Below are positions 610 through 33,312 of a stretch of 49,866 bases of DNA, in pieces. Position numbers and translations under genes: made by a program. The notes beneath the pieces were generated by a model that did not search any database, had not been told where the DNA came from, and saw nothing but the letters and a program-made list of their open reading frames with translations. Origin of the DNA: Candidatus Woesebacteria bacterium RIFCSPLOWO2_01_FULL_39_10 (lineage in GTDB: Bacteria > Patescibacteriota > Microgenomatia > UBA8517); assembly GCA_001793015.1 (NCBI GenBank), contig MGHC01000026.1:13829-63694 (forward strand), in the 5' to 3' direction. Within the stretch, counting starts at the first letter, position 1; each line of letters starts with the position of its first letter.

Positions 610-3501
610 TTACCAAGTTAAGTTTAAAAACTTATCTTGGGACAATGTTGTATTATACTCAAAGCTATCCCCATCGGTCAAGGTAAATGGTTCTTTTGAT
701 GAAAATATTAATTCATGAGGATGGGAAATTCTTATTTTTATAGGGTATTCAGCAATTCCAGATTGCTTTCTCCATAAAAGTTTATATTCTCCCCCTTGCT
801 TGTATGTGTGAGTCGACCCACTCTCCCATTTAAATATAACCGCTTTCACTTCACGGGCTGGTATTTCAACAAATACACCAACCTCTTTGAAGCCACGAAC
901 TCCTTTCGACTCCAGATCTTTTTTCTCAGTCTCCCTACTTACAATTTCAACCGGTTCAAAACCGCTGTCAAAAGTTGTAATCAATCGAAGGTAAGTCAAG
1001 TAATTGATATCGGAGTCATTATCCAAAAACAAAATGATTTTTCTTTTTACAAGATTTTCTTCTAAAGAAACTTCGAGCTCTGCCTCTCGTTTTACACCCA
1101 AACTACTTCCCTCTTTTACCGATTCTATCAGAGCTACAAAATCAGAGAAACAGTTTTCAAAACAACTACTTTGAGTCAAAGCTCCGTCCCAACCAAGGCT
1201 TGAAACAGCTTTTTGAGTATTTTGATCTTTAACAAAAACCTGAACGTTTTTGTTTTCTAAACCCTTTAAAATTATCTTTAAAATTTTTATCTTATTTCTC
1301 TTGTCTACATTTCTTGTATTTAACAATCCGCGTAAGATCGCTGTTGAAAAAAACTCCGTATCCTGAGAAAGGTTTGTCTTATTATCTTTCAAACGAGTTA
1401 AGAACTCATAATTCACTTCCTCCTCATCTCCCTCAATCTGGATGCCACCCAGAGAAGAAATAATGTCTCCCACAAAAGTCCCATCAACCGAAACAACACC
1501 ATCAATTCTCTCGTCCAATTCCTTATCTAAAAACCATTCGACCTGACTAGCGGTTGTAGGAAAATCTGGATCCCAACTAGCATCCTGTAAATACCAGGTT
1601 GAAGCATCAAAGTATTTTCTTAAAGGGCTTGGCGGGTCAATTTGTCCGACTAATTTACTGTCCGCCAATCCTGTATCATAAACACGTAAGTTGGTCATTT
1701 TTAAATTTTCAAAAGTGAAAATGCCAAAATTTTCAATTGTTCCCCCACTTCCTCTAGCTTGATTATTATTCTGGAAAAGTAGCGCGTATTTCTTGGGAGA
1801 TTCTTTACCAAGAACACCACTTGCTTCTTTAAATACGTTACTTAGTTTTAACGATTTATCTCTTAGGATCTTTATGTCCAAATCCCCAACAATCCAATTC
1901 GACACAATCTTTGTAAGTGCACTCGAAGATTGAAGTTCACCCCCAAGGAAGCCAAGTTCTCTATAAATATTCTCCAGTTCCAAATAAATTGTCTCTGAAT
2001 ATTCTACCCCCTCGGAAGGCTCACCCCCCAAAACACCGCCGGTAAGTTTGAGAAAGTTTTCCATGAGAGAAATCGTTTCCACTCCTATGTCTACCTCCTT
2101 TGTAACTACGGTTGAAGTCTCACCAACCTTTTTATATAACCCCCCCACTAAAGGAATTTTATTCATCAGTTGGGAGTAGTTACTTGCGGCATTTGAAAAA
2201 AAAGATGAAACTTTTAGTTGTCTACTTGAAGTAGTAAGGTACCCCATTGGTAATGTAAGTTTAGTTAAAAGTATAAATAAAATTGAGACGCTTATAAAAA
2301 TTGCTGGAGCGAGAAAAAGTAGAAAAATAAAAAATGCTAATAATTTTTTTTGTCGCTTAATGTTTTCAAAATTAAAAACGTGGATAAAAGATATCTTTTG
2401 CAAAAAAAAGGGCGTTTTAGTAAGACTTTTTTGTACTTCTATGGATTTTTTATCCGCCTTCGCAGAAAATCCTGAGCGAATTCGAAGGAATGAATGCGAA
2501 GAGTTTTTCGCTTCGGAGGATTTTGCTCCGACGAAGCGAGAGGAGAAGATACCACTGGCGTCAGCCAGTGGAGCTTCATTTTTGACTTTTCCTGTGTAGT
2601 CTTTCTTTTCAAGGCGGCTATATAATGGGGGCGTGGGTTTTTGTATCAATATATTTTCCTGCGCCCGAAAAGCGTTTTGGTATGCTTTCGAGAGTAGCGT
2701 TTTTTTCTTTTCGTAAACATATATCTTTTCGTCAACTTCGGGCTGAAATACTAAACCCTTTTCTGATGAAAAAGTAATTGAATAATAAGGGTTTATTTTT
2801 CTAAAATACAATTCTAGCTCTTTGCTAGAAACCTTCTTTCCTAATATTGCAATCTTTTTTCCAAAAGCTTTTAGAGAAAAAAGATAACGAAGTAAATGGG
2901 GCGCGGCCTTTTCAATACTGAGAGGGTAAAACAAATGGCTTTTGGTAACTACAGTTATTATCTGTCTTCCGACCGCTTCTTGAAAGAACTCTTGTAATAA
3001 GGCGTAAAGGTCTCTATCAAAAGTTTGAGGAATCAGTTCTCCTAAAAAGACTCCGGCGACATTAAGTTTATCGTTATTAATAATTTGGTTAGCTAAATTG
3101 AATTGCCCTTCGTGTGTCTTAAGTTTTGTCGAATAGGGCAAAACAAATACCGTTTTTGACTCGGTTTTGGTTGCAACACTTTCTGCAAGTCTTATTTTTT
3201 CTAAATCATGCTGAACTAACTTTTTGTGAGGATTATGCAGAGTCGAAGACAATAAAAGACAGATCGTGTATGCAGAATTGTATTTATAGATACTTTCTAG
3301 ACTAGATCCGCAAGATATAATTTCAACATTGTTTACGTCTGCAAACTTTTTATTCCACTCGCCAACTCCGTGCGCGATAATTATTGGGGTACAATTTTTC
3401 TCGATAAGCCGAAACACGACCTCCTTCGATAACAGGTTAAATTCTGAAATTACTAAAACTTTTGGGTTGTTCCTGCTGAAAGAATCTTTTCCTGTCGCCA
3501 T
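610..3501 (-). CDS. Membrane protein with a C-terminal DUF4012-type domain and an N-terminal Rossmann-like cytoplasmic domain
   Basis: ORF track, 963 aa. One TM helix (LLAFFIFLLFLAPAIFISVSILFILL) is followed by a DUF4012-like core (YALLFQNNNQARGSGGTIENFGIFTF). The N-terminus KVLVISEFNLLSKEVVFRLIEKN looks like a degenerate NAD-binding fold. The linker (aa about 305-350) is encoded by GC-rich repeat copy A. Confidence 0.6.
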   Translation of the reverse strand: MATGKDSFSRNNPKVLVISEFNLLSKEVVFRLIEKNCTPIIIAHGVGEWNKKFADVNNVEIISCGSSLESIYKYNSAYTICLLLSSTLHNPHKKLVQHDLEKIRLAESVATKTESKTVFVLPYSTKLKTHEGQFNLANQIINNDKLNVAGVFLGELIPQTFDRDLYALLQEFFQEAVGRQIITVVTKSHLFYPLSIEKAAPHLLRYLFSLKAFGKKIAILGKKVSSKELELYFRKINPYYSITFSSEKGLVFQPEVDEKIYVYEKKKTLLSKAYQNAFRAQENILIQKPTPPLYSRLEKKDYTGKVKNEAPLADASGIFSSRFVGAKSSEAKNSSHSFLRIRSGFSAKADKKSIEVQKSLTKTPFFLQKISFIHVFNFENIKRQKKLLAFFIFLLFLAPAIFISVSILFILLTKLTLPMGYLTTSSRQLKVSSFFSNAASNYSQLMNKIPLVGGLYKKVGETSTVVTKEVDIGVETISLMENFLKLTGGVLGGEPSEGVEYSETIYLELENIYRELGFLGGELQSSSALTKIVSNWIVGDLDIKILRDKSLKLSNVFKEASGVLGKESPKKYALLFQNNNQARGSGGTIENFGIFTFENLKMTNLRVYDTGLADSKLVGQIDPPSPLRKYFDASTWYLQDASWDPDFPTTASQVEWFLDKELDERIDGVVSVDGTFVGDIISSLGGIQIEGDEEEVNYEFLTRLKDNKTNLSQDTEFFSTAILRGLLNTRNVDKRNKIKILKIILKGLENKNVQVFVKDQNTQKAVSSLGWDGALTQSSCFENCFSDFVALIESVKEGSSLGVKREAELEVSLEENLVKRKIILFLDNDSDINYLTYLRLITTFDSGFEPVEIVSRETEKKDLESKGVRGFKEVGVFVEIPAREVKAVIFKWESGSTHTYKQGGEYKLLWRKQSGIAEYPIKIRISHPHELIFSSKEPFTLTDGDSFEYNTTLSQDKFLNLTW
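2451..2593 (+). repeat. GC-rich hairpin repeat, copy A (inside the 963-aa ORF)
   Basis: Shares tatccNccttcgc ... gattNNgctccNgacgaagcg ... gagaagatacc-[8 bp stem, 4 nt loop]-agcttcat-N-ttttcct with copy B (32638-32816). It shares only the 3-prime module with copy C (33266-33312). The stem is CCACTGGC/GCCAGTGG at 2552-2571 with loop GTCA. Confidence 0.7.
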
Positions 3502-3636
3502 TACCGTTTAATACTAATGTAGTTAATAAAGGTTTACAATCTATCCTTTACAAATTAAGTACTTTAATAGACTAAAGCATGAAGACTTAATAATTTTCAA
3601 GTGACAAAAAGACTAAAACTTCTGGTTGACGTGAAA

Positions 3637-4062
3637 TTACATTGGGTTTTCATCAAGTTTTAAATTTACAAGTTTGTCGGCAAGTTTATTTTTCTCTCTT
3701 CTGACAATGTTATATTTTATTTCTACGTCGGTTATCCTTTTTTCCAATGCTTTTATTTTAATTATTAACAACTTTAGCTTTTCACTTTTTACTTTATATA
3801 AGCCGGTTACCTGGCGGACCACCAATTCCGAATCAAGAAAAAATGAAATTTTACTATTTTGAAAAAGTTTCTGGTTATCGACAAGCCAGGAAAGGGCCAT
3901 TGCTAACGCTTTATATTCTGCTTCATTATTCGTAGCTATTCCTAAAAATTCCGAATGTTTAATTAACACCCCACCGTCTTTTAATACAACAAACGCCGCT
4001 GCCGCAGGACCCGGATTTCCCCTTGCACCTCCATCTGTATAAATTTTGGAAATATCCTGCAT
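3637..4062 (-). CDS. rnhA: Ribonuclease HI
   Basis: 141 aa. IYTDGGARGNPGPAAAAFVV, NNEAEYKALAMAL, DSELVVRQ and NKLADKL match the RNase H1 catalytic pattern. Confidence 0.85.
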   Translation of the reverse strand: MQDISKIYTDGGARGNPGPAAAAFVVLKDGGVLIKHSEFLGIATNNEAEYKALAMALSWLVDNQKLFQNSKISFFLDSELVVRQVTGLYKVKSEKLKLLIIKIKALEKRITDVEIKYNIVRREKNKLADKLVNLKLDENPM

Positions 4063-4100
4063 ACTTTTAGTCTACCATTAAAATATAGCTTTGAAGCCTG

Positions 4101-4592
4101 CTACTTGAGGTTGATTACTAAATACCGATCGCTTCCTTCTCCTTGGGATTCTGTTTGAATTTCTGAATCTTCTGATAGCACAAGGTGAATAATTCTTCTT
4201 TGGGAAGGAGCCAAATTATATAAATATTGGGGTTCCCCGGTTGCCTTCGCTCGTTCAGCGGCTTGTATGGCTAGTTTTTTTAACCGATCTTCTTCTTTTT
4301 CTCTCCAATCAGATGTGTTTACAAGAATTCTTACCCACTCGCCCGTTTCGCGCCTAACCATCATTCCTAAAAGCGTCTGGATTGCTTGAAGATTTTTTCC
4401 CCTATTGCCGATAATTAAACCCGTTTCCTCTCCAGCTTCAATATCTATTAGAATTCCCTTGTTTTCTTTATCTTCTGTAACTTTCGCCTTAGCTTTTGTT
4501 CCCAAAAGAGTAAGAAGTTTACCAGAAAGCTCTTCTACTAAATTTACAACGCTAACTTCTTCTTTTGTTTTCTTGGTTTTTTTTGTTCCCAT
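4101..4592 (-). CDS. jag: Jag/KhpB-like RNA-binding protein (KH plus R3H)
   Basis: 163 aa. It has a KH-like GNRGKNLQAIQTLLGMMV and a C-terminal R3H-like SQRRIIHLVLSEDSEIQTESQGEG. It sits in the conserved position after yidC. Confidence 0.75.
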   Translation of the reverse strand: MGTKKTKKTKEEVSVVNLVEELSGKLLTLLGTKAKAKVTEDKENKGILIDIEAGEETGLIIGNRGKNLQAIQTLLGMMVRRETGEWVRILVNTSDWREKEEDRLKKLAIQAAERAKATGEPQYLYNLAPSQRRIIHLVLSEDSEIQTESQGEGSDRYLVINLK

Positions 4593-4619
4593 TTATTTTA
4601 GGGCCTTGCCTTTTAGGCG

Positions 4620-5432
4620 TCATGATTGTACCAGTTTTAACTTATTTATCCAAGGACTTAAGCCTCCCCACCCCTGCATTCTCACTTGTTGAATTCCTTG
4701 AGAAAGCGAGAAGATAAACCAGTACAGTGCAAGTCCTGATGCAAACTGCATACCGATTAATAGAGTAAACAAGGGAAAAGTGTAAGTCATTGATTTTTGC
4801 ATCGCAACCTGAAAGTCGTCCGACGACTCTTTCGTTTTCTTAGCAATTTTTTCCTCAACTTTTGTATACGGAGCCATAACTTTGGCCGATAGAAACTGGA
4901 CGATAGCCGACAGAATTAATATTGGTCCTGGTATAGGAAAGGGTAAAAAAGGAAAGTTAACTATGTCTGGTTTAGTTATATCAAGGTAAAGAAATGAGGT
5001 GTTTACCTTTTCTTCTTGCGCAAACTTTAGAGGCTCATACAAAAGTTCGTTGAACTTTGCTGCCGGATCTACGTCGACAACCAAAGTTCTCGTAAAGACA
5101 TTAAAAAAGGCAATTAATATTACTATTTGCAAGAGGTAGGGGAGACATCCTGCTCCCGGGTTAACTCCCTTTTCTTTATAAAGATCTGCCTGGGCTTGAG
5201 CGAGTTTTACTTTGTCTCCTTTGTGTCTTTCTTTCAATTTATCAAGTTGGGGGGCAAAATCTTTCATTTTCTTCATCGACTCCATATACGGACGTGTAAG
5301 GGGGTTCAAAATAAATCGAAGTAATAAGGAAAAACCAATAATTGCAAGCCCCATATTTTCAAAAAGTAGGCGGTAGGTAAGTATTAATCCGTTCGCTAAG
5401 GGCTGTATTAAAAGGCTGGTAAAAATATTCAT
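4620..5432 (-). CDS. yidC: Membrane protein insertase YidC (short, Gram-positive-like form)
   Basis: 270 aa and multi-TM, with KKMKDFAPQLDKLKERHKGDKVKLAQAQADLYKEKGVNPGAGCLP. It follows the rnpA-yidD-yidC-jag synteny. Confidence 0.9.
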   Translation of the reverse strand: MNIFTSLLIQPLANGLILTYRLLFENMGLAIIGFSLLLRFILNPLTRPYMESMKKMKDFAPQLDKLKERHKGDKVKLAQAQADLYKEKGVNPGAGCLPYLLQIVILIAFFNVFTRTLVVDVDPAAKFNELLYEPLKFAQEEKVNTSFLYLDITKPDIVNFPFLPFPIPGPILILSAIVQFLSAKVMAPYTKVEEKIAKKTKESSDDFQVAMQKSMTYTFPLFTLLIGMQFASGLALYWFIFSLSQGIQQVRMQGWGGLSPWINKLKLVQS

Positions 5433-5456
5433 AAATTTATAATATTTATTTTATTG

Positions 5457-5705
5457 TTAACTTCTTCGCATTTGGGGTTGAAACCGTGGAACAGGATCGT
5501 AAAAACCTGAAGATAGGGAGTTGCATCGAAGAAATCTTCGGGTCGCAAGAAATCCCCCTTTTAGTACGCCGTATTTGTTAATTGATTCCATTGCGTACTC
5601 GCTACACGTAGGATAAAATCTGCAGCCGCCTCCTAACAACTTTTCGAGTATTGGTGATAAAACCTTTTTATAAACCTTTAAAATCATGACAAGTATAAAT
5701 TTCAT
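5457..5705 (-). CDS. yidD: Membrane protein insertion efficiency factor YidD
   Basis: 82 aa, with the family signature CRFYPTCSEYAMESINKYG. Confidence 0.9.
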   Translation of the reverse strand: MKFILVMILKVYKKVLSPILEKLLGGGCRFYPTCSEYAMESINKYGVLKGGFLATRRFLRCNSLSSGFYDPVPRFQPQMRRS

Positions 5706-5800
5706 TTTAGAGACAGGTTTTTTATGACATCCTCCCCGCTCTGAAGAGCGGTGTTTCCTCTAAAGGAGGACGACATATCAGAGCTCAATTCGTCCCCGCC

Positions 5801-6154
5801 TTAAAAGGGTGGGGTTTTCTTGAGATCTGCTATAAACCTTTCAACTTCTCTCATAATTTCTTCCGTGGACTTCGAAGCAATACTTTTCTTTGTTAGAATT
5901 ACAACGTCCCACCCCATAGGGGTTATTGATAAATTCCTTCGTACGCCTTCATTAAATGCTCTTGAAATTCTGTTTCTATGAACGGCAAGCTTTGAAACTT
6001 TTGTCGAAATTACAAAAGCAAATTGAGACGGCTCCTTGTCGTCTCTTTTCAATACAACCGTTCCAAAATTCTCACTTTGAAGAAGTTTACCCTCCTTCTT
6101 CACCTGCTCTATCCTTTTACTGCTTTTTATTCGATGTTCATTGGCAAGTATCAT
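5801..6154 (-). CDS. rnpA: Ribonuclease P protein component
   Basis: 117 aa, basic, immediately downstream of rpmH. It contains KLAVHRNRISRAFNEGVRR, which resembles the RNR motif. Confidence 0.85.
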   Translation of the reverse strand: MILANEHRIKSSKRIEQVKKEGKLLQSENFGTVVLKRDDKEPSQFAFVISTKVSKLAVHRNRISRAFNEGVRRNLSITPMGWDVVILTKKSIASKSTEEIMREVERFIADLKKTPPF

Positions 6155-6162
6155 AGCAGGTG

Positions 6163-6297
6163 TTACAGCCTTTCTCTTCCTTTCCTGACTCGTCGTTTCG
6201 AAACTTTTTTTCCTGATTTAGTTGAAATTCTTTTTCTAAATCCATGTGTCCGGGCTTTCTTCCTCTTACTTGGTTGGTAGGTTCTTTTAGTACTCAT
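6163..6297 (-). CDS. rpmH: 50S ribosomal protein L34
   Basis: Below the ORF-track size cutoff. The reverse-complement translation is [44 protein letters not shown] (44 aa), followed by TAA at 6165-6163. Confidence 0.9.
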
Positions 6298-6441
6298 GTT
6301 TATTTCGTATTAGGGATCAACATTAAAGATTATATAGATTCAAACTTGGATTGTCCATTCGTTTTTTTAAAGTTAGCTACAGACCAACGCTTAATCTAAA
6401 GGAAGAACTAAGGGTTTCGGTATTTTTGGGGGTTGACGCGT

Positions 6442-6450
6442 TGTGGATAA
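6442..6450 (-). promoter_or_regulatory. Perfect DnaA box (TGTGGATAA, the complement of TTATCCACA) in the rpmH-dnaA spacer
   Basis: Exact 9-mer read at 6442-6450, 187 nt upstream of the dnaA start. Confidence 0.7.
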
Positions 6451-6486
6451 CTTTTTTAATATAGTGAACACAGTAAGCATATCAAT

Positions 6487-6540
6487 CTTGTTTATCGTGC
6501 GAAGTACGCTGAGCATGACAAACTTTGTTTATCATGCGAA
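6487..6540 (+). repeat. Two copies of a 17-nt direct repeat (cttgtttatcgtgcgaa / tttgtttatcatgcgaa) upstream of dnaA
   Basis: The copies are at 6487-6503 and 6524-6540 and differ at 2 of 17 positions. Both contain a TTATC core, so they could be degenerate DnaA boxes or an operator. Confidence 0.5.
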
Positions 6541-6636
6541 CAGCAAGAGAACTACGGCCCAGTTAGTATTCAGTTGTTGTAGAAATATTCTGCTCTGCCG
6601 AATTTTTCGGTTCTTTAGACCTAACCTTATTCTATT

Positions 6637-8007
6637 ATGGACGATGTTGATAAAAAGAAAGTTTGGAATGAAGTTTTAGAAAGCATAAAAGTAAGCGTTT
6701 CTTCTGCAATTTTTACAACTTGGTTTGCACAAACATACCTCGCAACTTTAGTAAAAGATAAAGAAAAATATATTGCAGAAATAGGGTGCGCGTCTAGCTT
6801 TGTTAAAACAACAATTGAAACAAGATATTTTGGGTTAATTCAAGACTATCTAACTGAGTCTCTTGGATCAAAATGTGATCTTCTAATTATCGTAAAAGAA
6901 AACCCTGACAAAAGGATTGTCGATGAGGCCGTGATCCCTCTTTTTGGCAATGTAAACAAAAACGAGCAAGATATGCTTGAGGCAGCTAGGAGATTAGGAC
7001 TTCGTCCGGGATTTACTTTTGCTAACTTTGCTGTTTCTTCATCTAACCAAATGGCTCACGCTGCGGCAGAAGCCGTCTCCACGGACATTGGAAACGCCTA
7101 TAACCCTCTTTTTATTTGGGGTGGTGTCGGGATCGGTAAAACACACCTTATGCATGCGATCGGCCACAAAGCCTTGGGTGGAAACCTTACATTAAATATT
7201 TACTCCTGTACTGGAGAACAGTTTACTAATGACATAGTTGAAGGTATACGAAATAAAACTACAGCTAGCGTCAGGCAAAAATACAGAAAGCTTAAGTGCC
7301 TGCTTGTTGACGACATACAATTTATTGCCGGCAAGGATACCGTACAGGAAGAATTTTTCCACACGTTCAACGCTCTTGTCTCAAACGGAAGCCAGGTCGT
7401 TTTAACTTCCGATAAAGCACCTAATGAAATTTCTAAACTGGAAGAACGTCTGAAAAGCCGTTTTGAGGCTGGTTTAATAGTTGATATTGCACCTCCAGAT
7501 TTTGAATTACGGTGTGCTATTACTCAAATCAAGGCAAAACAAAGGGGTCTGGAAATTCCTATGGACATGGTTCAACTAATCGCTGGAAACATAGAAACAC
7601 CAAGAAAGATTGAGGGGCTTTTAACAAAGCTCGTCTCTGAAGTAAAGCTAAGAGGCAAAGAAATTACTCCTGAAACTATTGAAGGACTACTAGGTAAAGA
7701 CGGGGAAGAGAACGGAAAGCCTATCAAAGCAAACCCGAATGATGTTATTTCTGCTGTTTCAAAATATTATTCTTTAGGTAAACACTCGCTTCTTGGTGCT
7801 TCGAGACGTCGTCCTGTTGCAAGACCCAGACAACTTCTAATGTATTTATTAAGGATTTATCTCGGGCTTCCACTTCAGGAGGTTGGGAGATTGGTCGGAA
7901 ACCGGGACCACACCACTGTAATGCATGCTGTTAATACAATAACCCATTTAGCCTCGAGTAATGTGGGTATTCGTGAGGATTTAAGGGGGATAAAAAATAT
8001 GCTTTGA
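6637..8007 (+). CDS. dnaA: Chromosomal replication initiator DnaA
   Basis: 456 aa. It has Walker A GGVGIGKTHLMHAIG, Walker B LLVDDIQF, and a C-terminal DNA-binding region with GNRDHTTVMHAVN. Confidence 0.95.
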   Translation: MDDVDKKKVWNEVLESIKVSVSSAIFTTWFAQTYLATLVKDKEKYIAEIGCASSFVKTTIETRYFGLIQDYLTESLGSKCDLLIIVKENPDKRIVDEAVIPLFGNVNKNEQDMLEAARRLGLRPGFTFANFAVSSSNQMAHAAAEAVSTDIGNAYNPLFIWGGVGIGKTHLMHAIGHKALGGNLTLNIYSCTGEQFTNDIVEGIRNKTTASVRQKYRKLKCLLVDDIQFIAGKDTVQEEFFHTFNALVSNGSQVVLTSDKAPNEISKLEERLKSRFEAGLIVDIAPPDFELRCAITQIKAKQRGLEIPMDMVQLIAGNIETPRKIEGLLTKLVSEVKLRGKEITPETIEGLLGKDGEENGKPIKANPNDVISAVSKYYSLGKHSLLGASRRRPVARPRQLLMYLLRIYLGLPLQEVGRLVGNRDHTTVMHAVNTITHLASSNVGIREDLRGIKNML

Positions 8008-9352: not shown

Positions 9353-9357
9353 CTTTT

Positions 9358-19775: not shown

Positions 19776-21791
19776 TTATTTAAAAGCCTGAAAGGAATTT
19801 ATTAATCCTTGCTTTATACTCGTTTTGCGTATGGAGGAGAGAGTACTTCCTACGAGGATTCCATTTGCCCAATACAATCCTGTTTCCCCAGCCGGAAGTA
19901 TATCGTAAGTGAAGTCCTTCTGGTAAAAAATATTATCGGCGGTTGTTACGTGACCTCCATCGTAAACATCTGCTACCTTAAGATCAGCAATTGTATAACC
20001 GTCACTTCTAGGGTGGCCAGGTGAAACGAAGAGTTCACGCCCATCGTCAATGACAAGATGAGTTATTATATGTGTCTTCGGCACTGGTGTAATGATAGCC
20101 TTAAGGATCTTTACGGAGATACGCAAACCAGATTTGTTTAATGTCCATATTTTTACCCCCTTCTTTAGATGTTGAACAGCAATCGCTCCTTTTGGAGTGT
20201 CAATTAGCGTATCTTCGGAAAGACATGGTTTCCTCCCAAACGCACTGAAAAGCCCCCTCCATCCACGAGCTTCAATTTCACCCATGATTTTCTTTTCATA
20301 ACCGCCCCTTATAAGACCGTAAGGATAAGTAATAGGTTGTGCACCAATTCCCACTCCAGTCATAATAGCAGCACCAATTGCAGAACCATACCCAAACGGC
20401 CTCTTGGAAATAAGCGATTGAATTATATTAGCGATATTTGGAACCAAAGCGAGTATTCCAATTGCAACTATAAATCCGAAATTAATCCCCGTTCCCAGAT
20501 CGAAACCAGGCAGATGAATAGTACCCGAACCTCCTAAAGATTGTATTCCGTACGGGTTTAATAAATTTACAGTGTTAAGCCCAGTGAAAATCGTTTCAAA
20601 TATGCCAGGATTCGTTGCATTAAATGAACTCCAGAAAATAAAATGAGCCAAAAAAAACATAGCAATTATTCCGGGAAATACTGCAACTTGGGCTACTAGG
20701 TCTCTAAGCCAACTACCGAACCCTCCAGTATTGGGAAATATTCCGCCTAATATTATTATTGGGCCAAAAACTATAAGAAGAACGATATTTATAAAGGTTT
20801 TTATCCAAGTCCAAAGAATTCGTAGCCAGATAAGTATGAAAAAAGCGATAATTACAAGGAATATAATGCCCTGAATAAATAATGCTGGTACTGCCATGGT
20901 TACTGATAAAACTCCAACGGTTAGTGGGATTATTGTATACGCTGTAATGTAAGTATTTACAATCAAAAACATTGTAATCATTGGATGGCCTCCAATAAGT
21001 TTGGTGTAAAGTTCAACTGCAGAAAGAGAACTTACAGAATCAGCGGCAACGGCAAGAAGCCCGACGGATACAAAAGAAAGGTCTATAACAAATCCTGCTA
21101 TCGCATAGGAAAATGTGATTAACAATAAAACGAATATCATGCGGGGAATTGCGGACTGAATAGTGATTACTGTCTGCGGAGATATTTTCAGTCTAAACAT
21201 GACCATGAAGGAAATGGCAACGAATGCTATGACCAAAAGAAAGTACGCAATATTTCTTATTGCCTTCCAAATTTCTTGAATTGGAGAGAGCGTTGAAAAA
21301 CCAAATCCTTGGGCTTCGGCCTGAGGAATTAGGTGAAATTGTGATAATTTATTTTGTATATACCCAATACCGGAAATCGGATTATTGGATACAGTATTAT
21401 TAATTACCTGAGCTAAGTTGGTCTCACCCACATAACCGATCCCAAAAGCTTGGAAGATGCCGGAAATTACTCCTGCTAAACAAGCCGAAATAGATGTGGG
21501 GCTTGCAAAATTTGTTCCAATACAGAGTAATATTTCCGGGGGCATAAATGCCGCTTTCAACGCGTGTAGAATCCAAATTACTTGTGCCTGAGTATAGCGT
21601 TCGCCGAAAATCTCATCTGGATTGGTTTGATCGTAAACCTTTGTCGCGTACTCGCCAAATGTCGGGTGATACCATGTTCCTACTTGTGCCTGAGCATAAG
21701 GAGTAACAAGACTAACTAGAAGTACTGAAGCCAGAACTAAGGATATGATCAGTTTTTTGATTAATGACAATTGACTTTTGACTTTTGACAT
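19776..21791 (-). CDS. Polytopic VirB6/TrbL-like membrane protein with a C-terminal Hint domain
   Basis: 671 aa. A signal-like N-terminus (LVLASVLLVSLVTPYAQAQ) is followed by at least 8 hydrophobic helices, then a Hint domain starting at Cys523. The VirB6 assignment rests on topology and context only. Confidence 0.6.
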   Translation of the reverse strand: MSKVKSQLSLIKKLIISLVLASVLLVSLVTPYAQAQVGTWYHPTFGEYATKVYDQTNPDEIFGERYTQAQVIWILHALKAAFMPPEILLCIGTNFASPTSISACLAGVISGIFQAFGIGYVGETNLAQVINNTVSNNPISGIGYIQNKLSQFHLIPQAEAQGFGFSTLSPIQEIWKAIRNIAYFLLVIAFVAISFMVMFRLKISPQTVITIQSAIPRMIFVLLLITFSYAIAGFVIDLSFVSVGLLAVAADSVSSLSAVELYTKLIGGHPMITMFLIVNTYITAYTIIPLTVGVLSVTMAVPALFIQGIIFLVIIAFFILIWLRILWTWIKTFINIVLLIVFGPIIILGGIFPNTGGFGSWLRDLVAQVAVFPGIIAMFFLAHFIFWSSFNATNPGIFETIFTGLNTVNLLNPYGIQSLGGSGTIHLPGFDLGTGINFGFIVAIGILALVPNIANIIQSLISKRPFGYGSAIGAAIMTGVGIGAQPITYPYGLIRGGYEKKIMGEIEARGWRGLFSAFGRKPCLSEDTLIDTPKGAIAVQHLKKGVKIWTLNKSGLRISVKILKAIITPVPKTHIITHLVIDDGRELFVSPGHPRSDGYTIADLKVADVYDGGHVTTADNIFYQKDFTYDILPAGETGLYWANGILVGSTLSSIRKTSIKQGLINSFQAFK
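19848..20225 (-). other. Hint (Hedgehog/intein-like, BIL-type) domain at the C-terminus of the VirB6-like protein
   Basis: Block A is CLSEDTLIDTPKGAIAVQHL (Cys codon at 20225-20223). Block B is LFVSPGHP (an SxxH variant of TxxH). The terminal block is FTYDILPAGETGLYWANGILVGS, where the canonical HN is replaced by GS, and 23 more residues follow. Confidence 0.7.
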
Positions 21792-21894
21792 TTTACTTGA
21801 ATAACTTCGTCTATCTAAATTAATAATAACATACTGTCATTCTCTAATTGCAAGAATAACTCAAGAATAACTTTTGACTTTTGACTTTTGACAT
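21771..21894 (-). repeat. 21-nt perfect direct repeat that duplicates the start codon region of the VirB6-like gene
   Basis: ttgacttttgacttttgacat occurs at 21771-21791 (the real start, MSKVKSQ) and again at 21874-21894. The 82-nt spacer contains GTTATTCTTGA-like words. Confidence 0.85.
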
Positions 21895-21906
21895 TTAGTT
21901 ACAAAA

Positions 21907-27843: not shown

Positions 27844-27851
27844 GTTGGGCC

Positions 27852-28172
27852 CTATGGTGCTATTTGGAAATTTAGAATGTTCAATTGTCCGGTAAAAACT
27901 CCGATGAATCGCAGGAATAAATATGATAAAGCAAGAAGTACCATTCCTCCAATTGCGTATGTCAAAGTTTTTTTGGCTTGTTCTATGGCCTTAGGGTCTC
28001 CGCCTCCTGTAATAAACTGAATACCTCCCCAAATAAGCATAAAAAAAAGAACGATGCCTGCAAGTCCAAGTAGAGCAGCAATTGCGTTTTCAAAAATGCC
28101 CTCCAATCCTTTGAGGGTAGCAATTCCACTTATATTGTGAACTCCCGCCTGGGCAAGTAGCTTACTTTCCAT
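27852..28172 (-). CDS. VirB2/TrbC-like T4SS pilin-module protein P1
   Basis: 106 aa. Two TM helices flank FITGGGDPKAIEQAKKTLTYAIGG. An AGAGG Shine-Dalgarno lies 2 nt before the ATG. Confidence 0.7.
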   Translation of the reverse strand: MESKLLAQAGVHNISGIATLKGLEGIFENAIAALLGLAGIVLFFMLIWGGIQFITGGGDPKAIEQAKKTLTYAIGGMVLLALSYLFLRFIGVFTGQLNILNFQIAP

Positions 28173-28242
28173 ACCTCTAGTTTAATTGAAGAATTTGAGA
28201 AGGGCAACTGGTGTATTGATAGAATCTTATAGTTTTGTCCAC

Positions 28243-28266
28243 AAAAAAACCCCGATTTAATCGGGG
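28243..28266 (-). terminator. Rho-independent terminator after pilin P2
   Basis: On the minus strand the sequence reads CCCCGATTAAATCGGGG followed by TTTTTTT (plus-strand A-run at 28243-28249). It lies 20 nt after the P2 stop. Confidence 0.7.
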
Positions 28267-28286
28267 TTCTCTTTTTCTTACTCCTT

Positions 28287-28637
28287 TTATGGAGCTTGTG
28301 CATTCGGGATATTGAGTTGCAATATGTTTACCCCGAAGAATATATTAACTAAGTTGATTATTGCCCAAGCTGCAAAGACTATAACTAATCCAACTAGTGC
28401 TGCGGTGATTTGACCTCGCGCAGCCTCTGTCTGGGCTTTGTCGCCACCTGAAGTTATGTATCTTACTCCACCCCAGACTAGCATGAAGAAGAAAACTAAA
28501 GCTGCGACAATAAGAACTAAAATTATTAGAGCGGAAATAATGTTAGCAATCGTAATGTTATTAAGACCCGAGAACTGTCCTCCAGGGCTAATGTTGATTG
28601 GACTTTGGGCGAGAACTGTTGAAAAAAGTGTTGTCAT
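28287..28637 (-). CDS. VirB2/TrbC-like pilin-module protein P2 (own promoter and terminator; candidate major pilin)
   Basis: 116 aa, with YITSGGDKAQTEAARGQITAALVG between two TM helices. Confidence 0.7.
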   Translation of the reverse strand: MTTLFSTVLAQSPINISPGGQFSGLNNITIANIISALIILVLIVAALVFFFMLVWGGVRYITSGGDKAQTEAARGQITAALVGLVIVFAAWAIINLVNIFFGVNILQLNIPNAQAP

Positions 28638-28670
28638 GAAATTTATTTAATTATCTTTATGCTGATTATT

Positions 28671-28700
28671 ATTATGGCCATCACCAATTCTTTTTGTCAA
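28671..28700 (-). promoter_or_regulatory. Sigma70-like promoter for P2 (TTGACA-N18-CATAAT)
   Basis: On the minus strand, TTGACA is the reverse complement of 28695-28700 and CATAAT is the reverse complement of 28671-28676. The -10 element ends 33 nt before the P2 ATG. Confidence 0.45.
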
Positions 28701-28801
28701 GGGGTAAAATGATCTCAATTTTATCCCCTAACGGACATTTTGTGTGCAAAAAAACTTTTTTCTTGACCCAACTTACATTTCCTGCAAGGTGAGTTTTTCA
28801 A

Positions 28802-29176
28802 TTAAGGTATTCTAATTGCATTAATCATTGACTGAAGGTCGAGGATGTCCGGGAGTCCAAGTAAGGTGGCGATAAGGTCAAAAAGAAACATTGCGGCAAT
28901 TACAGCGACAAAACCGATTGCCCCAGTTGTGATTCTTCTTCTGGCACTTTCGTACGCCGCTTTATCTCCACCAGATGAAATAATACCTAGGGCACCTGTT
29001 ATTAGTACGAACATAAAGTAAAGTGCTCCGATGACTGTTAAAACGCCGATGGTTGTCGACAAGATTTGAGCAAGAATTCCAACGGCTCCTCCAGCACCTC
29101 CCACCAAACCAATAGTCCCTATACCGCTTAAGGGATTACCAATGGGTGTAGGATTTTGTGCAATCAAACTTTCCAT
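28802..29176 (-). CDS. VirB2/TrbC-like pilin-module protein P3
   Basis: 124 aa, with IISSGGDKAAYESARRRITTGAIG between two TM helices. Confidence 0.7.
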   Translation of the reverse strand: MESLIAQNPTPIGNPLSGIGTIGLVGGAGGAVGILAQILSTTIGVLTVIGALYFMFVLITGALGIISSGGDKAAYESARRRITTGAIGFVAVIAAMFLFDLIATLLGLPDILDLQSMINAIRIP

Positions 29177-29178
29177 AG

Positions 29179-29514
29179 TTAAGGGGTAAAGACCTTTAAC
29201 TGTAATAATGCGTTTGCGTCGTTAAAGAGAATTAGTCCAATAACTGCCGCGAGTACGAAAGCCCCTGCAGCAATAATCAGGCCCAAAACGCTATGCCAAA
29301 TTTTTGCACCAGCATCTTGAATTCTTTTTGGGTCACCGCCTGCTGAAAGATAGGCATAACCGGCAAGAATTAAGTTAAGTACTGTATAGATCCCGGCTCC
29401 GACAATCAGAGTTCGCAGAATAATGTTTAGAAGTACCTGTAGTCCATTCACACTTCCTCCGGCAAAAGGACGTAGCCAGGTTGGTACAGGAACACTTCCC
29501 CAAGGATTTTGCAT
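29179..29514 (-). CDS. VirB2/TrbC-like pilin-module protein P4
   Basis: 111 aa, with YLSAGGDPKRIQDAGAKIWHSVLG between two TM helices. Confidence 0.7.
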   Translation of the reverse strand: MQNPWGSVPVPTWLRPFAGGSVNGLQVLLNIILRTLIVGAGIYTVLNLILAGYAYLSAGGDPKRIQDAGAKIWHSVLGLIIAAGAFVLAAVIGLILFNDANALLQLKVFTP

Positions 29515-29518
29515 ATTA

Positions 29519-29845
29519 TTAACCTAAAATACTTACACCAAATGTACTCTCAATAAAACGTACAATCAAAAATGCAACTGCTATTATTATAAAGCCAATG
29601 ATTCCTGCTGTGATAATATTTTTTCCCTGCTCAATCTTTTGCGGATCTCCAGCCCCAGTAATCATATAAAAACCCGCAATAATTATAAGAATTACAAGAA
29701 CAACTCCTGCTACCATTATGGCGTTAGATAAAAGGATGGAGACAAGTTGCCCTAATCCTTCAACGCCAGGGTTAAGATCTCCTAAAAAATGTCCAACCTG
29801 GCCAAAAAAAGATTGGTCTATATCAACCTGCGCAAGATAGTTCAT
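29519..29845 (-). CDS. VirB2/TrbC-like pilin-module protein P5
   Basis: 108 aa, with MITGAGDPQKIEQGKNIITAGIIG between two TM helices. Confidence 0.7.
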   Translation of the reverse strand: MNYLAQVDIDQSFFGQVGHFLGDLNPGVEGLGQLVSILLSNAIMVAGVVLVILIIIAGFYMITGAGDPQKIEQGKNIITAGIIGFIIIAVAFLIVRFIESTFGVSILG

Positions 29846-29914
29846 AGTTAAAGTTTAATACAATACTATGTTAGAACTCAAATATTAGATCTCAAAACCA
29901 TATCTTAGAGCTAT

Positions 29915-30304
29915 TTAACTTCTTTTACCTTTCATTGTCAAAAGACTAGATGCAATCATTTTTCCGATCTCTTTTGCTTCAGACAGGAGTGGCTCTACTT
30001 TGTCTACTTTTTCTAGTTTTGAATCTTCCAGGAGCATCAACCAATAGATAGTTTCGTTAGTGCTTTTAAGGGCAATCTCATAAAATTTTATGAAGTCCCT
30101 TTTAGAACTCGATGACTTGGCTTCGACTAGGTTTGCTCCGATAGAAGTCGCGCAACGTAATAATTGATCTTCGATTATCCAATAAACTCTTTTTTCAGGA
30201 AAATCCTTAACGAAAACAATAATTGATAACGAAAATTGATAGGCTCTGTATTTTACATTAGATCTTAGATTTAAGTTATGGTTTTGAGTTTTGAGATACG
30301 ACAT
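29915..30304 (-). CDS. Four-helix-bundle protein (23S rRNA IVS protein / Avd family), copy 3
   Basis: The ORF track gives 29915-30331. I prefer the ATG at 30304 (MSYLKTQNH...), which avoids overlap with the upstream gene. The signature is TSIGANLVEAKSSSSKRDFIKFYEIALKSTNETIYWLMLL. Confidence 0.75.
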   Translation of the reverse strand: MSYLKTQNHNLNLRSNVKYRAYQFSLSIIVFVKDFPEKRVYWIIEDQLLRCATSIGANLVEAKSSSSKRDFIKFYEIALKSTNETIYWLMLLEDSKLEKVDKVEPLLSEAKEIGKMIASSLLTMKGKRS

Positions 30305-30317
30305 ATGAGTTTGTTTC

Positions 30318-31115
30318 TCATCCAAAAACATTTATTATTGGTGGTAAATTAAGAATTCGTGCAACGAGCTGCACTATCCAGAATGCCACAAATATTACAA
30401 TGAAACCAACAATTGCGTACATAATTTTTTCCCGGCCTGCTGCAATTCCTTTCGGATCTCCCTGAGAGGTAAGAATTTGATATCCACCCATGACAATGTA
30501 AATAAGAATAAGAAAACCAACAATTCCAAAGATGTATGGTAAAAGTGCAGCGACAATATTTCCTACACTACATATATTCGTTAATCCGCAGTTCCAGAAG
30601 TTTGGCAACCCTAACCTAATAAATCTTCCAAATTGTATGCCAGCTCGTCCGACTGGCGGGGGGGTTGGTTGGCAAAATACGCAGGATAAACACTGAGATT
30701 GGCCGCATTGAGATGTCGTACAGTAAGGATCACATGGCAATCCTACAGGTCCTAGGACATCTAGATTTTCAATACAGTTTTTCGGACTCGTTGTACTGGT
30801 ACTTGTTGCTGATATTGAATATCTCCCACGGGCTGTACAATTTACCGAAATGGGGGTTGAATTTTGCCCCAACGCGTCAGTCTGAAATGGGGTGGTTGCT
30901 GAGCAGGCGTTATTATTGAAAGCCAGATTATACCTTGTATTTGCATTTCCATTCGTCAAATTGATATTACCGGGCACACCTGCCGAAAGTGGATTCGGAG
31001 TAAATGTTAGGTTGCACTGCCCAGCTTGTGCATGAACTTTGGTGGGTTGAGATAGGAAAAGCACTCCAAACAAAAGAAAGATAGTTGCAATTAAAGTAAT
31101 TTTAATTATCTTCAT
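30318..31115 (-). CDS. Pilin-module fusion P6: signal peptide, Cys-rich ectodomain, then a C-terminal VirB2/TrbC-like module
   Basis: 265 aa. The signal is LLFGVLFLSQPTKVHAQA. The Cys-rich part is CDPYCTTSQCGQSQCLSCVFCQP. The C-terminus LTSQGDPKGIAAGREKIMYAIVG lies between two TM helices. Confidence 0.65.
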   Translation of the reverse strand: MKIIKITLIATIFLLFGVLFLSQPTKVHAQAGQCNLTFTPNPLSAGVPGNINLTNGNANTRYNLAFNNNACSATTPFQTDALGQNSTPISVNCTARGRYSISATSTSTTSPKNCIENLDVLGPVGLPCDPYCTTSQCGQSQCLSCVFCQPTPPPVGRAGIQFGRFIRLGLPNFWNCGLTNICSVGNIVAALLPYIFGIVGFLILIYIVMGGYQILTSQGDPKGIAAGREKIMYAIVGFIVIFVAFWIVQLVARILNLPPIINVFG

Positions 31116-32506
31116 AATCCTGGAATATTAAGAATTCGTACTCCGATAAGTCTTAAAATATAAACTCCAAAAAGGAGTAATAATAAACCGCTAATAGCTG
31201 CGGTCAAAAGCTCTTTTCCCGCCTGAAGTCTCTGAGGATTTCCTGCTGAGGTTATTACCAAAAATGCTGCGTAGATAATCAAAAGAAAGGCAATGCCACC
31301 TGCAATTCCAATTGCCCAACCGAGAATAAATTCTGCAAAATCATTCTTGTTTGTTATTGGAATGCAGCCGATTGCTGTGTAAAGTTTTCCAGTTAATAAA
31401 GGATCTATGGTTGGATTTCCAGAAGCGTCGCAGTAAACCATGGGTGGTTTGGAAGTAGCAGGTGATGCGGGTACACAACAAATTTGGCCCAAAGAGCAAA
31501 CTGAATTAGGGTCAAGTGGATTATTTATTCCATCTGGGGTGGTTCCTGGAATTGAACCGCAAGTAAACCCAGTAACACATGTTCCAGATTGTCCTGTAGA
31601 AACCCCCGTACATGTGGTGGGAGCCTGAAGGCAACTGAGAGTATTTTCTACGCAATAACCGCCAACGCATTTTTGTAAAAGATTACATTGTCCATTAGCC
31701 CCACAAGTGCCACTTGTATCAGTACAACTAAGACAGACAGTTGGTCGGTAATCGCATTGATAACCAGTAAGGCCTATTCCGGTGTTATAGCATACATATC
31801 CTGGCGGGCATCCACCCCCTCCACAAGTGAGATTATAATCAGTACAGATATTACACGAAGAGAGGGGATCAAATACGCATTGCCCGCTTGCGTTACACGT
31901 TTCTGTAGGACGGCATCTTCCGCCCGCTCCACAGCCCCCAATAGCGGGATTACAAATTTGAGTTGTAGGTAGCGGTTGATTTAGAGTACAACCAGTAATT
32001 AAAGGAATAGCACCTCCATCCAAAATTTGTGTTCGATCTCTGATAATGAAGTAAGGTATGACTCTAATCCCGACTTGGCCGCTTGGATAATTAGATAAGC
32101 CACCTGGTGCTGAATGCGAACCAAGATTTGCGGTTTGTCCAAGAGGACAAATTGTGGGTAAATTACCAGTACAATCATAAATTTGGACATCGTTTGTAAG
32201 TCGGTAAGAAGAAACAACATTAGATGGTCCGCACGGCCCATCGCAACAATCGATTAGTAGACTGTAGGAGGGGTTTGATATAGTACTTAGGTAAACATCG
32301 GCATCAGCTATACCTTGTATTAATCTGCTACTTACGGTAATACTAACTTGAGCAGTTGAACAGCTGGAAATATTTGATAGGACTTCAATTTCACCTGCTA
32401 TACCTGACGGAGTGGGAGTTTGTGCGTAAAGTACGGAATTATTAAAAATGAAAGTCGCTATAAAAATAGTAATAAAGACTACCAAAATCTGAAGTAACCT
32501 TTTCAT
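31112..32506 (-). CDS. Pilin-module fusion P7: signal peptide, large Cys-rich ectodomain, then a C-terminal VirB2/TrbC-like module
   Basis: 464 aa. The signal-like N-terminus is followed by many CxxGxC-type clusters (CNASGQCVFDPLSSCNICTDYNLTCGGGGCPPGYVC...). The C-terminus ITSAGNPQRLQAGKELLTAAISG lies between two TM helices. Its stop overlaps the P6 start by 4 nt. Confidence 0.65.
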   Translation of the reverse strand: MKRLLQILVVFITIFIATFIFNNSVLYAQTPTPSGIAGEIEVLSNISSCSTAQVSITVSSRLIQGIADADVYLSTISNPSYSLLIDCCDGPCGPSNVVSSYRLTNDVQIYDCTGNLPTICPLGQTANLGSHSAPGGLSNYPSGQVGIRVIPYFIIRDRTQILDGGAIPLITGCTLNQPLPTTQICNPAIGGCGAGGRCRPTETCNASGQCVFDPLSSCNICTDYNLTCGGGGCPPGYVCYNTGIGLTGYQCDYRPTVCLSCTDTSGTCGANGQCNLLQKCVGGYCVENTLSCLQAPTTCTGVSTGQSGTCVTGFTCGSIPGTTPDGINNPLDPNSVCSLGQICCVPASPATSKPPMVYCDASGNPTIDPLLTGKLYTAIGCIPITNKNDFAEFILGWAIGIAGGIAFLLIIYAAFLVITSAGNPQRLQAGKELLTAAISGLLLLLFGVYILRLIGVRILNIPGL

Positions 32507-32577
32507 TAATTTGAGTGTAGCACGAAAAAGAAAATTGCTAAATTGCTAAATAGTAGGGAGCAACTAAACAAGTTTTT

Positions 32578-33057
32578 TCAGATAGATAATTGTGAGTGTA
32601 GTTTAAAATAAGGAAGAAAGATAACTTCAGTAGTGTTTATCCCCCTTCGCGAAATACCCCGGACGTAAGTCCGCGGATGAAAGCGAAGGAATTTCGTTTC
32701 GGTCGAACGTCGCCAAAGGCTTTGCCGACGGCGCGAGGGATTCCGCTCCCGACGAAGCGCTGGGAGAAGATACCCCGACCGCAAGGTCGTGGGGAGCTTC
32801 ATCTTGATCTTTTCCTCAAGGGATAGATTGGCAACAATTGCTTTTTCGGGTTTGTATTTTCCTATGAAATTTCTCAATGAACGCGTAATTTCAGGTTTTT
32901 TCATTGTAGAAAATTTAGTTTCGACAGGTACAATTGTCTTACCTTTTTCAATTATAAAATCGACCTCGGACTTGTCTTTGGTTCTCCAAAAATGGGGTTT
33001 TGACGGGAATTCTGAAACTAGTCTTAAATTATGAAGAATGTACCCTTTTATTACCAC
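32578..33057 (-). pseudogene. 3-prime fragment of a DUF4143-type AAA ATPase gene, interrupted by GC-rich repeat copy B
   Basis: WRTKDKSEVDFIIEKGKTIVPVETKFSTMKKPEITRSLRNFIGKYKPEKAIVANLS and the final TEVIFLPYFKL fit the C-terminal part of DUF4143 proteins. The roughly 250-aa ATPase N-terminus is missing. The middle 55 aa (MKLPTTLRSGY...SRRGI) are encoded by the repeat. Confidence 0.55.
32638..32816 (+). repeat. GC-rich hairpin repeat, copy B
   Basis: This is the longest copy. Its hairpins include CCGGAC-GTAA-GTCCG(c)GG, GAAAGCGAA-GGAA-TTCGTTTC and CCCCGACC-GCAA-GGTCG(t)GGG (32773-32793). The 3-prime module gagaagatacc...agcttcat lies at 32764-32802. Confidence 0.7.
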
Positions 33058-33265
33058 ACTACCTTTTTAGTACGAGATTACAGGTAGTCAAGTATCTAAT
33101 CATGTCAATTAACACTACTTTTTTATCAGCAAAAACAGAAAACCACGCATTTACCAAGTTTGACTTGGCCAAGCTTTGCTTATGCGTGGATGAATGATTT
33201 TTCCGAGATACAGCTGAAAGCTAGTATCGAGGTCGGCTGAACTGCTTTTGCAGTGAAGATGTCCT

Positions 33266-33312
33266 GAGAAGATACCCCGATCGTAAGATCGGGGAGCTTC
33301 ATTTCTTTTCCT
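33266..33312 (+). repeat. GC-rich hairpin repeat, copy C (3-prime module only)
   Basis: gagaagatacc, then CCCCGATC-GTAA-GATCGGGG (33275-33294), then agcttcatttcttttcct. Confidence 0.7.

Follow-up and report, generated by a model that had tools for sequence, protein, structure and literature searches.

The window analysed here is a stretch of 49,866 nucleotides from contig MGHC01000026.1 of Candidatus Woesebacteria bacterium RIFCSPLOWO2_01_FULL_39_10. Direct reading of its sites identified three copies of a short structured element, A, B and C, all on the + strand. Copy A lies inside a minus-strand open reading frame (ORF) that matches DUF4012, and copy B in the C-terminal tail of a truncated minus-strand ORF that matches DUF4143 over its last 40 positions only (Table 1). 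The GC content at the copies is 0.50-0.59, compared with approximately 0.33-0.36 in the surroundings. On the + strand the copies have a common right-end module, which consists of GAGAAGATA, then CC, a stem of 6 bp with a 4-nt loop, GG and finally AGCTTCAT; the stems differ between the copies and stay complementary. A previous sequence-only reading of the window had described three copies in the same orientation that share GAGAAGATACC, an 8-bp stem with a 4-nt loop and GGAGCTTCAT, which our analysis bears out. Its copy C, given as 47 nt at 33266-33312, was too short, as the full-length element is larger (Table 1). That the hosts of copies A and B are translated straight through the element one nucleotide apart is also correct (frames m2 and m0, respectively), and because the frames differ no common peptide is encoded.

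When the copies of the family are right-aligned at CAT, the similarity among them stops directly after CAT and directly before (T)TTAT, and the flanks are unrelated. On the left flank TTTAT is conserved at 84-97% in 76 copies, and the right flank has merely a weak T enrichment. The sequence TTTTCCT, previously taken as a part of the module, is therefore flank and not element; what follows the CAT is unrelated in the approximately 90 copies listed. The edge is fixed by a filled and an empty allele of leuS. The leucyl-tRNA synthetase (LeuRS) gene at locus L047 carries a copy, and its database twin P0136 has 826 amino acids. P0137 (777 amino acids) is 97% identical to P0136 and lacks exactly 42 residues, EAPHDL...FAKGD. 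At the DNA level (L118) the empty allele reads ...GTTGTAGTATTTAT joined directly to TATCCGGCC..., while in the filled allele ...GTTGTAGTATTTAT is followed by the insert CCCCCTTCGC...GGGGAGCTTCAT and then by TGGCCGC.... In short form, GTAGTATTTAT is followed by the 126 nt CCCCC...GCTTCAT and TGGCC in the filled allele and by TATCC in the empty one. The insert is thus exactly 126 nt long and sits 3' of TTTAT, which occurs once per allele, and there is no target-site duplication. The leuS pair fixes the boundaries of the element, TTTAT on the host side and then CC...GGAGCTTCAT, and therefore those of the three window copies in Table 1. We also searched metagenomes for an empty site of copy A, without a match.

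Table 1. Positions of the three element copies in the window, their parts and their host ORFs.
Feature	Positions	Strand	Evidence or remark
ORF of 963 aa, host of copy A	610-3501	-	matches DUF4012
Copy A, TTTAT target motif (transposon-adjacent motif), host DNA kept as left flank	2449-2453	+	TTTAT conservation, leuS allele pair
Copy A, type-1 mini element, 126 nt (3 x 42), frame m2, in the linker of the DUF4012 protein	2454-2579	+	covariance model R1, 121 bits, E 9.5e-27
Copy A, left-end subterminal hairpin hp1, weakened (outer TCCT/AGGA and few inner pairs left)	2470-2489	+	model mismatches, fold
Copy A, central hairpin P3, CGCTTCGGAGG...CTCCGACGAAGCG	2508-2539	+	fold, alignment, covariation
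Copy A, right end: GAGAAGATA guide region, hairpin CCACTGGC-GTCA-GCCAGTGG (2552-2571), terminal AGCTTCAT	2543-2579	+	same module downstream of tnpA in L090, L109 and L117
Flank motif CTTTTCCT after copy A (6 nt)	2586-2593	+	within 2-6 nt of each copy
Truncated ORF, host of copy B	32578-33057	-	matches DUF4143
Copy B, TTTAT target motif	32636-32640	+	direct reading, flank conservation
Copy B, type-1 mini element, 162 nt (3 x 54), P3 enlarged by an additional hairpin, frame m0	32641-32802	+	model R1, ORF reading
Copy B, left-end hairpin CCCCGGAC-GTAA-GTCCGCGG, 18 nt past TTTAT	32657-32676	+	fold
Copy B, right end: GAGAAGATA, hairpin 32773-32794 with one bulged T, AGCTTCAT	32764-32802	+	direct reading, fold
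Flank motif CTTTTCCT after copy B	32809-32816	+	within 2-6 nt of each copy
Copy C, TTTAT target motif	33122-33126	+	direct reading
Copy C, full-length type-2 mini element, 176 nt, length not a multiple of three, outside any ORF	33127-33302	+	type-2 relatives; R1 matches 33246-33302 and 33122-33227
Copy C, left-end hairpin CCACGCA...TGCGTGG with a 33-nt loop insertion	33143-33189	+	
Copy C, right end	33266-33302	+	
Flank motif CTTTTCCT after copy C	33305-33312	+	within 2-6 nt of each copy

The pattern GAGAAGATACC-N16-22-AGCTTCAT was searched against 185,579 species genomes, and the counts of copies, flanks and ORF residence in this study rest on the matches listed in that scan. At least 112 loci match the family pattern. 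Approximately 90 among the matches listed have a genuine hairpin in the gap, and 85 among the loci listed match a covariance model. The search beyond the window, which the earlier reading had proposed, does yield further copies, and nearly all of those among the matches listed belong to the candidate phyla radiation (CPR)/Patescibacteria. The carriers include Woese-, Davies-, Levy-, Curtiss-, Gottesman-, Ames-, Chisholm-, Nealson-, Uhr-, Sungii-, Portnoy- and Berkelbacteria as well as Saccharibacteria. Many carriers are labelled 'uncultured Gammaproteobacteria binchicken' and have many copies (e.g. L004-L006, L017, L024 and L047). The nearest named relatives of the LeuRS at L047 are Woesebacteria, and for this reason we treat its label as wrong; judging from this LeuRS, the 'Gammaproteobacteria' label of the binchicken metagenome-assembled genomes (MAGs) seems to be a taxonomic error. 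In a further metagenome scan with GG added to the pattern and the gap unshortened, five loci were found, including L117, which has a tnpA gene, and new subtypes. A scan of viral contigs returned ten chance matches, none of them with a hairpin or a TnpA.

The element has a size of 95-190 nt and begins with CCNCC. Copies in one MAG are 98-100% identical and have unrelated flanks, and therefore the repeat is, to judge by its sequences, recently mobile. Many contigs terminate inside the element; complete CPR genomes with many near-identical copies exist as well, for example CP066686.1. In the window, model R1 recovers just the copies A, B and C. Two weak matches (E approximately 0.003) were seen at 28241-28344 and 5724-5836, the first of which, on the minus strand, is really a terminator-like hairpin, AACCCCGAT-TAA-ATCGGGGTTTTTTT, between two minus-strand ORFs. 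The subtype of copy B with the expanded P3 is also found in L074, L089 and L025. Copy C, which starts with TTTAT and then CAGCAAAAAC..., has type-2 relatives in L001, L003, L012, L033, L037, L057, L064 and L113-L116.

The right end of the element, and this had been overlooked in the earlier reading, is that of transposase-bearing IS200 elements. The same right end is found approximately 38 nt past the stop codon of ORFs of 146-149 amino acids in L090 (Lentisphaeria), L109 (a cyanobacterium, Pseudanabaenaceae) and L117 (metagenome). The ORFs of L090 and L109 (146-147 amino acids) match the Pfam family Y1_Tnp (PF01797, 'Transposase IS200 like') with E-values of 3.6e-34 and 1.8e-39 and hold the motif HVHFLV together with the tyrosine motif GFYA/GYFA; the ORF of L117 is 72% identical to the L090 TnpA. 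The left end of L090 consists of TTTAT, TCAAGGGGGGTAAATACC and then CCGACCCTTGGGTCG. It shares TTTAT, the 18-nt spacing and the AAATACC foot with the CPR mini elements, and its hairpin resembles the right-end hairpin of the same element. Type-2 mini elements keep ...CAGCTGAAC...TGA in + sense, like the QLN...stop C-terminus of these transposases, and therefore an origin of type 2 by internal deletion would fit. For the IS605-family ISGst elements, TTTAT and TTCAT have been published as transposon-adjacent motifs (TAMs; PMC10055086). Gene-less copies of the kind known as palindrome-associated transposable elements (PATEs) are mobilised in trans in the ISGst elements of G. stearothermophilus (PMC10055086). 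In the IS200/IS605 family, the cleavage sites are recognised by base pairing with guide bases that lie 5' of each hairpin, and insertion takes place 3' of the target without duplication (PMC5934647).

Because the repeats share their right end with Y1 elements, have hairpin-bearing ends and are inserted at TTTAT without duplication, we consider it probable (approximately 0.85) that they are non-autonomous, gene-less miniature derivatives of the IS200/IS605 family, similar to PATEs, which survive inside genes through a length of a multiple of three (3n) and stop-free frames. The three window sites are annotated as transposon copies, not as RNA genes or small ORFs. A miniature inverted-repeat transposable element (MITE) with terminal inverted repeats and target duplication was rejected, as inverted repeats are missing and a k-mer test for duplication gave a negative result.

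We examined the fold on 49 type-1 copies (alignment A3), with helices taken from RNAalifold and inspection. Element bases 1-5 and the last T of TTTAT form a long-range helix, P1, with the GGNGGA directly 5' of GAAG. P2 (CTTCGC/GCGAAG) encloses the left hairpin hp1. In the central hairpin P3, tandem G.A alternates with G-C/C-G; its length is variable and it accommodates large insertions, copy B being one example. P4 (GAAG/CTTC) encloses the right hairpin hp3. In total 90.4% of the cells are paired, and 17 pairs are changed on both sides (145 such cells). These values were not reached by any of 500 shuffles, and slid controls were 39-48% paired; the covariation that the sequence-only reading had seen in three stems is strongly confirmed. 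The distance from TTTAT to the start of hairpin hp1 is 18 nt, and hp3 stops 8 nt short of the element end; they have seven and five double-change pairs, respectively, and the termini are not inverted copies of one another. P2 is swapped whole between subtypes (CTTCGC/GCGAAG, AAAGC/GCTTT and GAAGC/GCTTC), P1 is swapped between UCC/GGA and UCAG/CUGA, and P4 between GAAG/CTTC and the AAC/GTT of the divergent subtype L020, whose terminus is TTTAT. The right-end GAAG/CTTC pairing is otherwise invariant, but the search pattern partly imposed it. At the left end it is plausible that an A-rich guide pairs with TTTAT. A pairing of the 5' end with the central hairpin was discarded, as the covariation favours pairing with the bases 5' of GAAG. 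The + strand loops follow GTNA (GTAA, GTTA, GTCA and GTGA) and are not strictly of the GNRA type reported before. In copy A the left hairpin is degraded, and therefore this copy may be immobile.

Such a fold could also belong to an RNA instead of single-stranded DNA, i.e. to a structured + strand non-coding RNA such as the omega-RNA guide scaffold of a TnpB/IscB-type nuclease or a regulatory RNA. The multi-helix fold with its covariation, G.U pairs, tandem G.A pairs and GNRA-like loops, as well as fold z-scores of -5.3 and -3.1, are what one would expect of it, and PATEs of the IS200/IS605 family often carry omega-RNAs (PMC10055086). The minus strand, however, folds nearly as well, and no Rfam family matches the element even at E <= 10. 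With Rfam 15, only a transfer-messenger RNA (tmRNA) and transfer RNAs (tRNAs) reach the gathering score in the window, and at E <= 10 the three copies give nothing but noise. Elements of the parent type have no gene other than tnpA, and the approximately 38 nt between stop codon and element end leave no space for an omega-RNA scaffold, which led us to reject a TnpB omega-RNA. Recognition by the transposase fully explains the hairpins, their spacing and the end motifs. Taking these points together with the mixed orientation to host genes described below, we regard an RNA as unlikely. Domains V/VI of a group II intron came into question through a bulged hairpin that contains CGC and precedes another hairpin having an A at -8 and an AU terminus; they were rejected on size (95-190 nt versus at least 400), on the variable central hairpin and on the missing 5' GUGYG motif, the element beginning with CCNCC. 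Integron attC sites, hammerhead and other small ribozymes, retrons and diversity-generating retroelements were rejected as well, with no matching motifs or Rfam matches.

To assess residence inside genes, we defined an in-ORF copy as one spanned completely by a stop-free stretch of at least 150 amino acids, and 68 copies had enough flank. Thirty-two of them are in-ORF, 23 antisense and nine sense to the + strand of the element. This split makes the transcriptional context inconsistent for a non-coding RNA, and an RNA acting within the host transcript is not supported, given the 23 antisense cases. A 3n length is found in 31 of the 32 in-ORF copies, compared with 18 of 36 elsewhere. Elements have on average 2.90 open frames of six, compared with 1.28 +/- 0.13 (maximum 1.57) in composition-matched shuffles. 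Stops are depleted in four of the six frames, and the TGA of ATGAAG always shuts one minus frame. Four different frames of the element are used by host ORFs. The hosts include LeuRS, GlmS, Sua5/YrdC, Obg, Pol X (PolX), VanW, an O-antigen ligase (Wzy_C) and DUF4012 proteins, and they have Pfam domains on both sides of the insert: in GlmS it lies between the GATase and SIS domains, and the Sua5/YrdC domain is split in two. A second DUF4012 protein (863 amino acids) of Ca. Woesebacteria RIFCSPHIGHO2_01_FULL_39_23 has an independent copy (L083:4973-5106) that is oriented the other way and occupies the same inter-domain linker where copy A lies. The DUF4012 homologues P0002 and P0003 are gapped at the site of copy A, P0002 being 51% identical with the same two-part architecture. 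As in the LeuRS pair, the segment is missing from orthologues, a comparison that the sequence-only reading had proposed. Its likeness to Rickettsia palindromic elements (RPEs) holds as a matter of behaviour, given the frame preservation, the depleted stops and the orthologues without the segment. The predicted peptides at the host-insert junctions are ...VKNEAPLADASGIFSSR... for copy A and AANEAPHDLTVGVSSPSASSGAESLQSE for LeuRS.

Residence in essential genes (LeuRS, GlmS, Sua5 and Obg) in a compact and highly structured form would also suit an intervening sequence which is taken out of the mRNA or the protein of the host, i.e. a mini-intron, a translational bypass element or an intein-like element. 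In yeast mitochondria, GC-rich hairpin inserts are bypassed by ribosomes, which we count in favour of such a removal. Removal at the RNA level, however, would constrain neither length nor stops, contrary to the 3n bias and stop depletion above. The fold is on the + strand and most host genes are on the opposite one, intron-like or ribozyme matches are absent, and the peptides are without intein motifs. We therefore hold removal to be very unlikely, more so than a non-coding RNA.

The sequence-only reading had offered a decayed family of minus-strand small-protein genes (MKLP..., MKLH...) with their own Shine-Dalgarno (SD) sequence and ATG as another explanation. On the minus strand each copy does begin with ATGAAGCTCC, many copies have an open ATG frame, and AGGAAAAG lies 2-6 nt upstream in the three window copies. 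The minus-strand arrangement of AGGAAAAG and ATG is thus real in the window and is not a feature of the family, since the SD-like flank is absent outside the genome of the window. The ATG belongs to the terminal TTCAT motif: it is the reverse complement of the CAT that ends the transposon, an end that occurs behind tnpA genes as well. No conservation is seen in the ATG-frame peptide. Its register switches between GIFS and VSSP from copy to copy and is restored by compensating length changes elsewhere, and the covariation of the stems alters it. The frame has stops in many copies and continues past the element end, and the four reading frames used by host ORFs speak against a single peptide family too. 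Such a gene family has next to no likelihood in our view.

We therefore return to the miniature transposon, for which the following mechanism can be proposed by analogy to IS608, ISDra2 and ISGst. On the + (top) strand the anatomy is host TTTAT, 18 nt, a subterminal hairpin as the left end, the central hairpin, and as the right end GAGAAGATA, CC, an 8-bp hairpin with a GTNA loop, GG and AGCTTCAT. A dimer of a Y1 (HUH) TnpA, supplied in trans, would bind both hairpins on single-stranded DNA and cut after TTTAT and after TTCAT. The cleavage sites would be presented via the purine-rich guide bases 5' of the hairpin feet, which at the right end is GAAG with CTTC, i.e. P4. The excised single-stranded circle would then be pasted 3' of another TTTAT without duplication ('peel-and-paste'). 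P1, in which CCNCC pairs with the GGNGG 5' of GAAG, would set both cleavage sites at one helical junction. The 3' strand of P1 and the 5' strand of P4 are one A apart, and the CTTC-AT-CCNCC of the circle could pair continuously with GGNGG-A-GAAG. In gene-dense CPR genomes many insertions would hit ORFs, and copies would persist there if they have a 3n length and a stop-free frame and lie in tolerant loops or linkers. Judging from the preserved frames, persisting in-ORF copies are most likely translated as insertions of approximately 42 amino acids.

Several points weigh against the transposon interpretation. The mini left ends share geometry and the AAATACC foot with the transposase-bearing elements, and no extended sequence. 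A tblastn search found no Y1 transposase gene in the window or in approximately 700 kb of CPR loci (8-kb neighbourhoods of copies), and no transposase-bearing copy with a CPR-type left end was recovered among the loci examined; all three transposase-bearing relatives are either non-CPR or on metagenome contigs that have no label. G.T outnumbers A.C in the stems by a modest margin, 55 versus 39 (approximately 20 without one weak pair), and therefore the main support for strand specificity is given by the TTTAT/TTCAT motifs together with the GTNA loops. For the probable translation of the inserts, frame preservation is the only argument. Finally, the transposon model leaves CTTTTCCT behind all three window copies unaccounted for.

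These three are among seven plus-strand occurrences of CTTTTCCT in the window, and copies A and B share TTGA(T)CTTTTCCT in their flanks. Allowing for one G.T, the motif is complementary to AGGAGAAG within the element. It is absent from the family flanks of other genomes and is thus specific to the genome of the window and outside the family-wide element. It may reflect a target preference that reaches further in this lineage, or else a short 3' extension.

Right of copy C, an 83-nt segment (33324-33406) is 84% identical to 34447-34529 in the 5' region of a SpoIID-domain gene (34300-36081), and a nucleotidyltransferase/HepT toxin-antitoxin pair (33445-34258) lies between the two segments. Given this duplicate, the toxin-antitoxin pair and the truncated DUF4143 ORF, the region 32578-34300 has the look of a rearranged junkyard surrounding copies B and C. 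Immediately left of these two copies, 32628-32635 (CAGTAGTG) and 33113-33119 (CACTACT) are mutual reverse complements that bracket copy B and the DUF4143 fragment, which may be chance. Elsewhere in the window there are two 31-nt direct repeats (21763-21793 and 21866-21896), 103 nt apart, which contain TTGACTTTTGACTTTTGACATTT; they separate two minus-strand ORFs and resemble iterated TTGAC(T/A) boxes. The tmRNA gene (178 bits) and four tRNA genes are ordinary, at 39558-39918 (-), 42026-42190 (+) and 43244-43423 (+).

In the literature on palindromic elements and MITEs in CPR/Patescibacteria and on RPEs in CPR taxa we found no description of this element, and it appears to be a so far undescribed mobile-element family. 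More tentatively, and at a little less than an even chance, we propose that it represents a CPR-wide lineage of IS200/IS605 mini elements specialised for life inside coding genes, with 3n length, four of six frames stop-free, scarless insertion and excision and an end-joining fold. If this is true, loops of approximately 42 amino acids have been added to essential enzymes of minimal genomes, and there would be a first mechanistic model for the 'selfish DNA in coding genes' of the RPE type. Puzzling in-frame repeats inside genes would be tied to a defined, scarless transposition chemistry in which precise excision is possible, which makes the proposal testable. Gene-dense genomes of approximately 1 Mb offer few intergenic safe sites, and selection for 3n stop-free elements would then be a case of a transposon adapting to the genome architecture of its host. 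In practical terms, the element breaks MAG assemblies, as seen from the many contigs that end within it, and it inflates or alters predicted proteins, including aminoacyl-tRNA synthetases.

Among known systems, the element is closest to the IS200/IS605 family (IS200, IS608, ISDra2, ISGst and the PATEs), with which it has in common subterminal hairpins at either end on the same strand, a lack of terminal inverted repeats, insertion precisely 3' of a 5-nt TTTAT that is kept on the left flank without duplication, and a right end that closes with the related motif TTCAT. Purine-rich bases 5' of the hairpin feet may likewise pair with the cleavage sites, the motifs of the right end are those of elements that encode a Y1/HUH TnpA, and there are many copies without tnpA, as in G. 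stearothermophilus. The present element differs in being just 95-190 nt long, in having additional conserved helices (the long-range P1, P2 and P3) that give one compact junction, and in its 3n bias, its stop depletion in four of six frames and its habitual position within ORFs. It is also found in CPR/Patescibacteria, and its cognate transposase was not found in the loci examined.

The RPEs, which Ogata and colleagues are said to have described in 2000, are reportedly short hairpin-forming repeats that reside in frame in protein-coding genes, including essential ones, are translated and have no transposase nearby. The element described here resembles them in its short hairpin repeats, its in-frame residence in genes, the lack of a nearby transposase and, presumably, its translation. 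It belongs to another phylum and is not a simple palindrome, and we do not claim a relation in sequence. RPEs are not known to have a transposition mechanism, whereas for the present element the ends, the target motif and the parent transposase family are identified.

Repetitive extragenic palindromic (REP) sequences and bacterial interspersed mosaic elements (BIMEs) are reported (PMC8266576) to be short hairpin repeats tied to the REP-associated tyrosine transposase (RAYT, TnpA-REP), a Y1/HUH enzyme of the same superfamily. The present element is likewise short, hairpin-bearing and linked to Y1/HUH enzymes. In contrast to REPs, which are intergenic single hairpins of approximately 35 nt with a conserved GTAG-type tetranucleotide, it has distinct IS-like left and right ends and enters genes.

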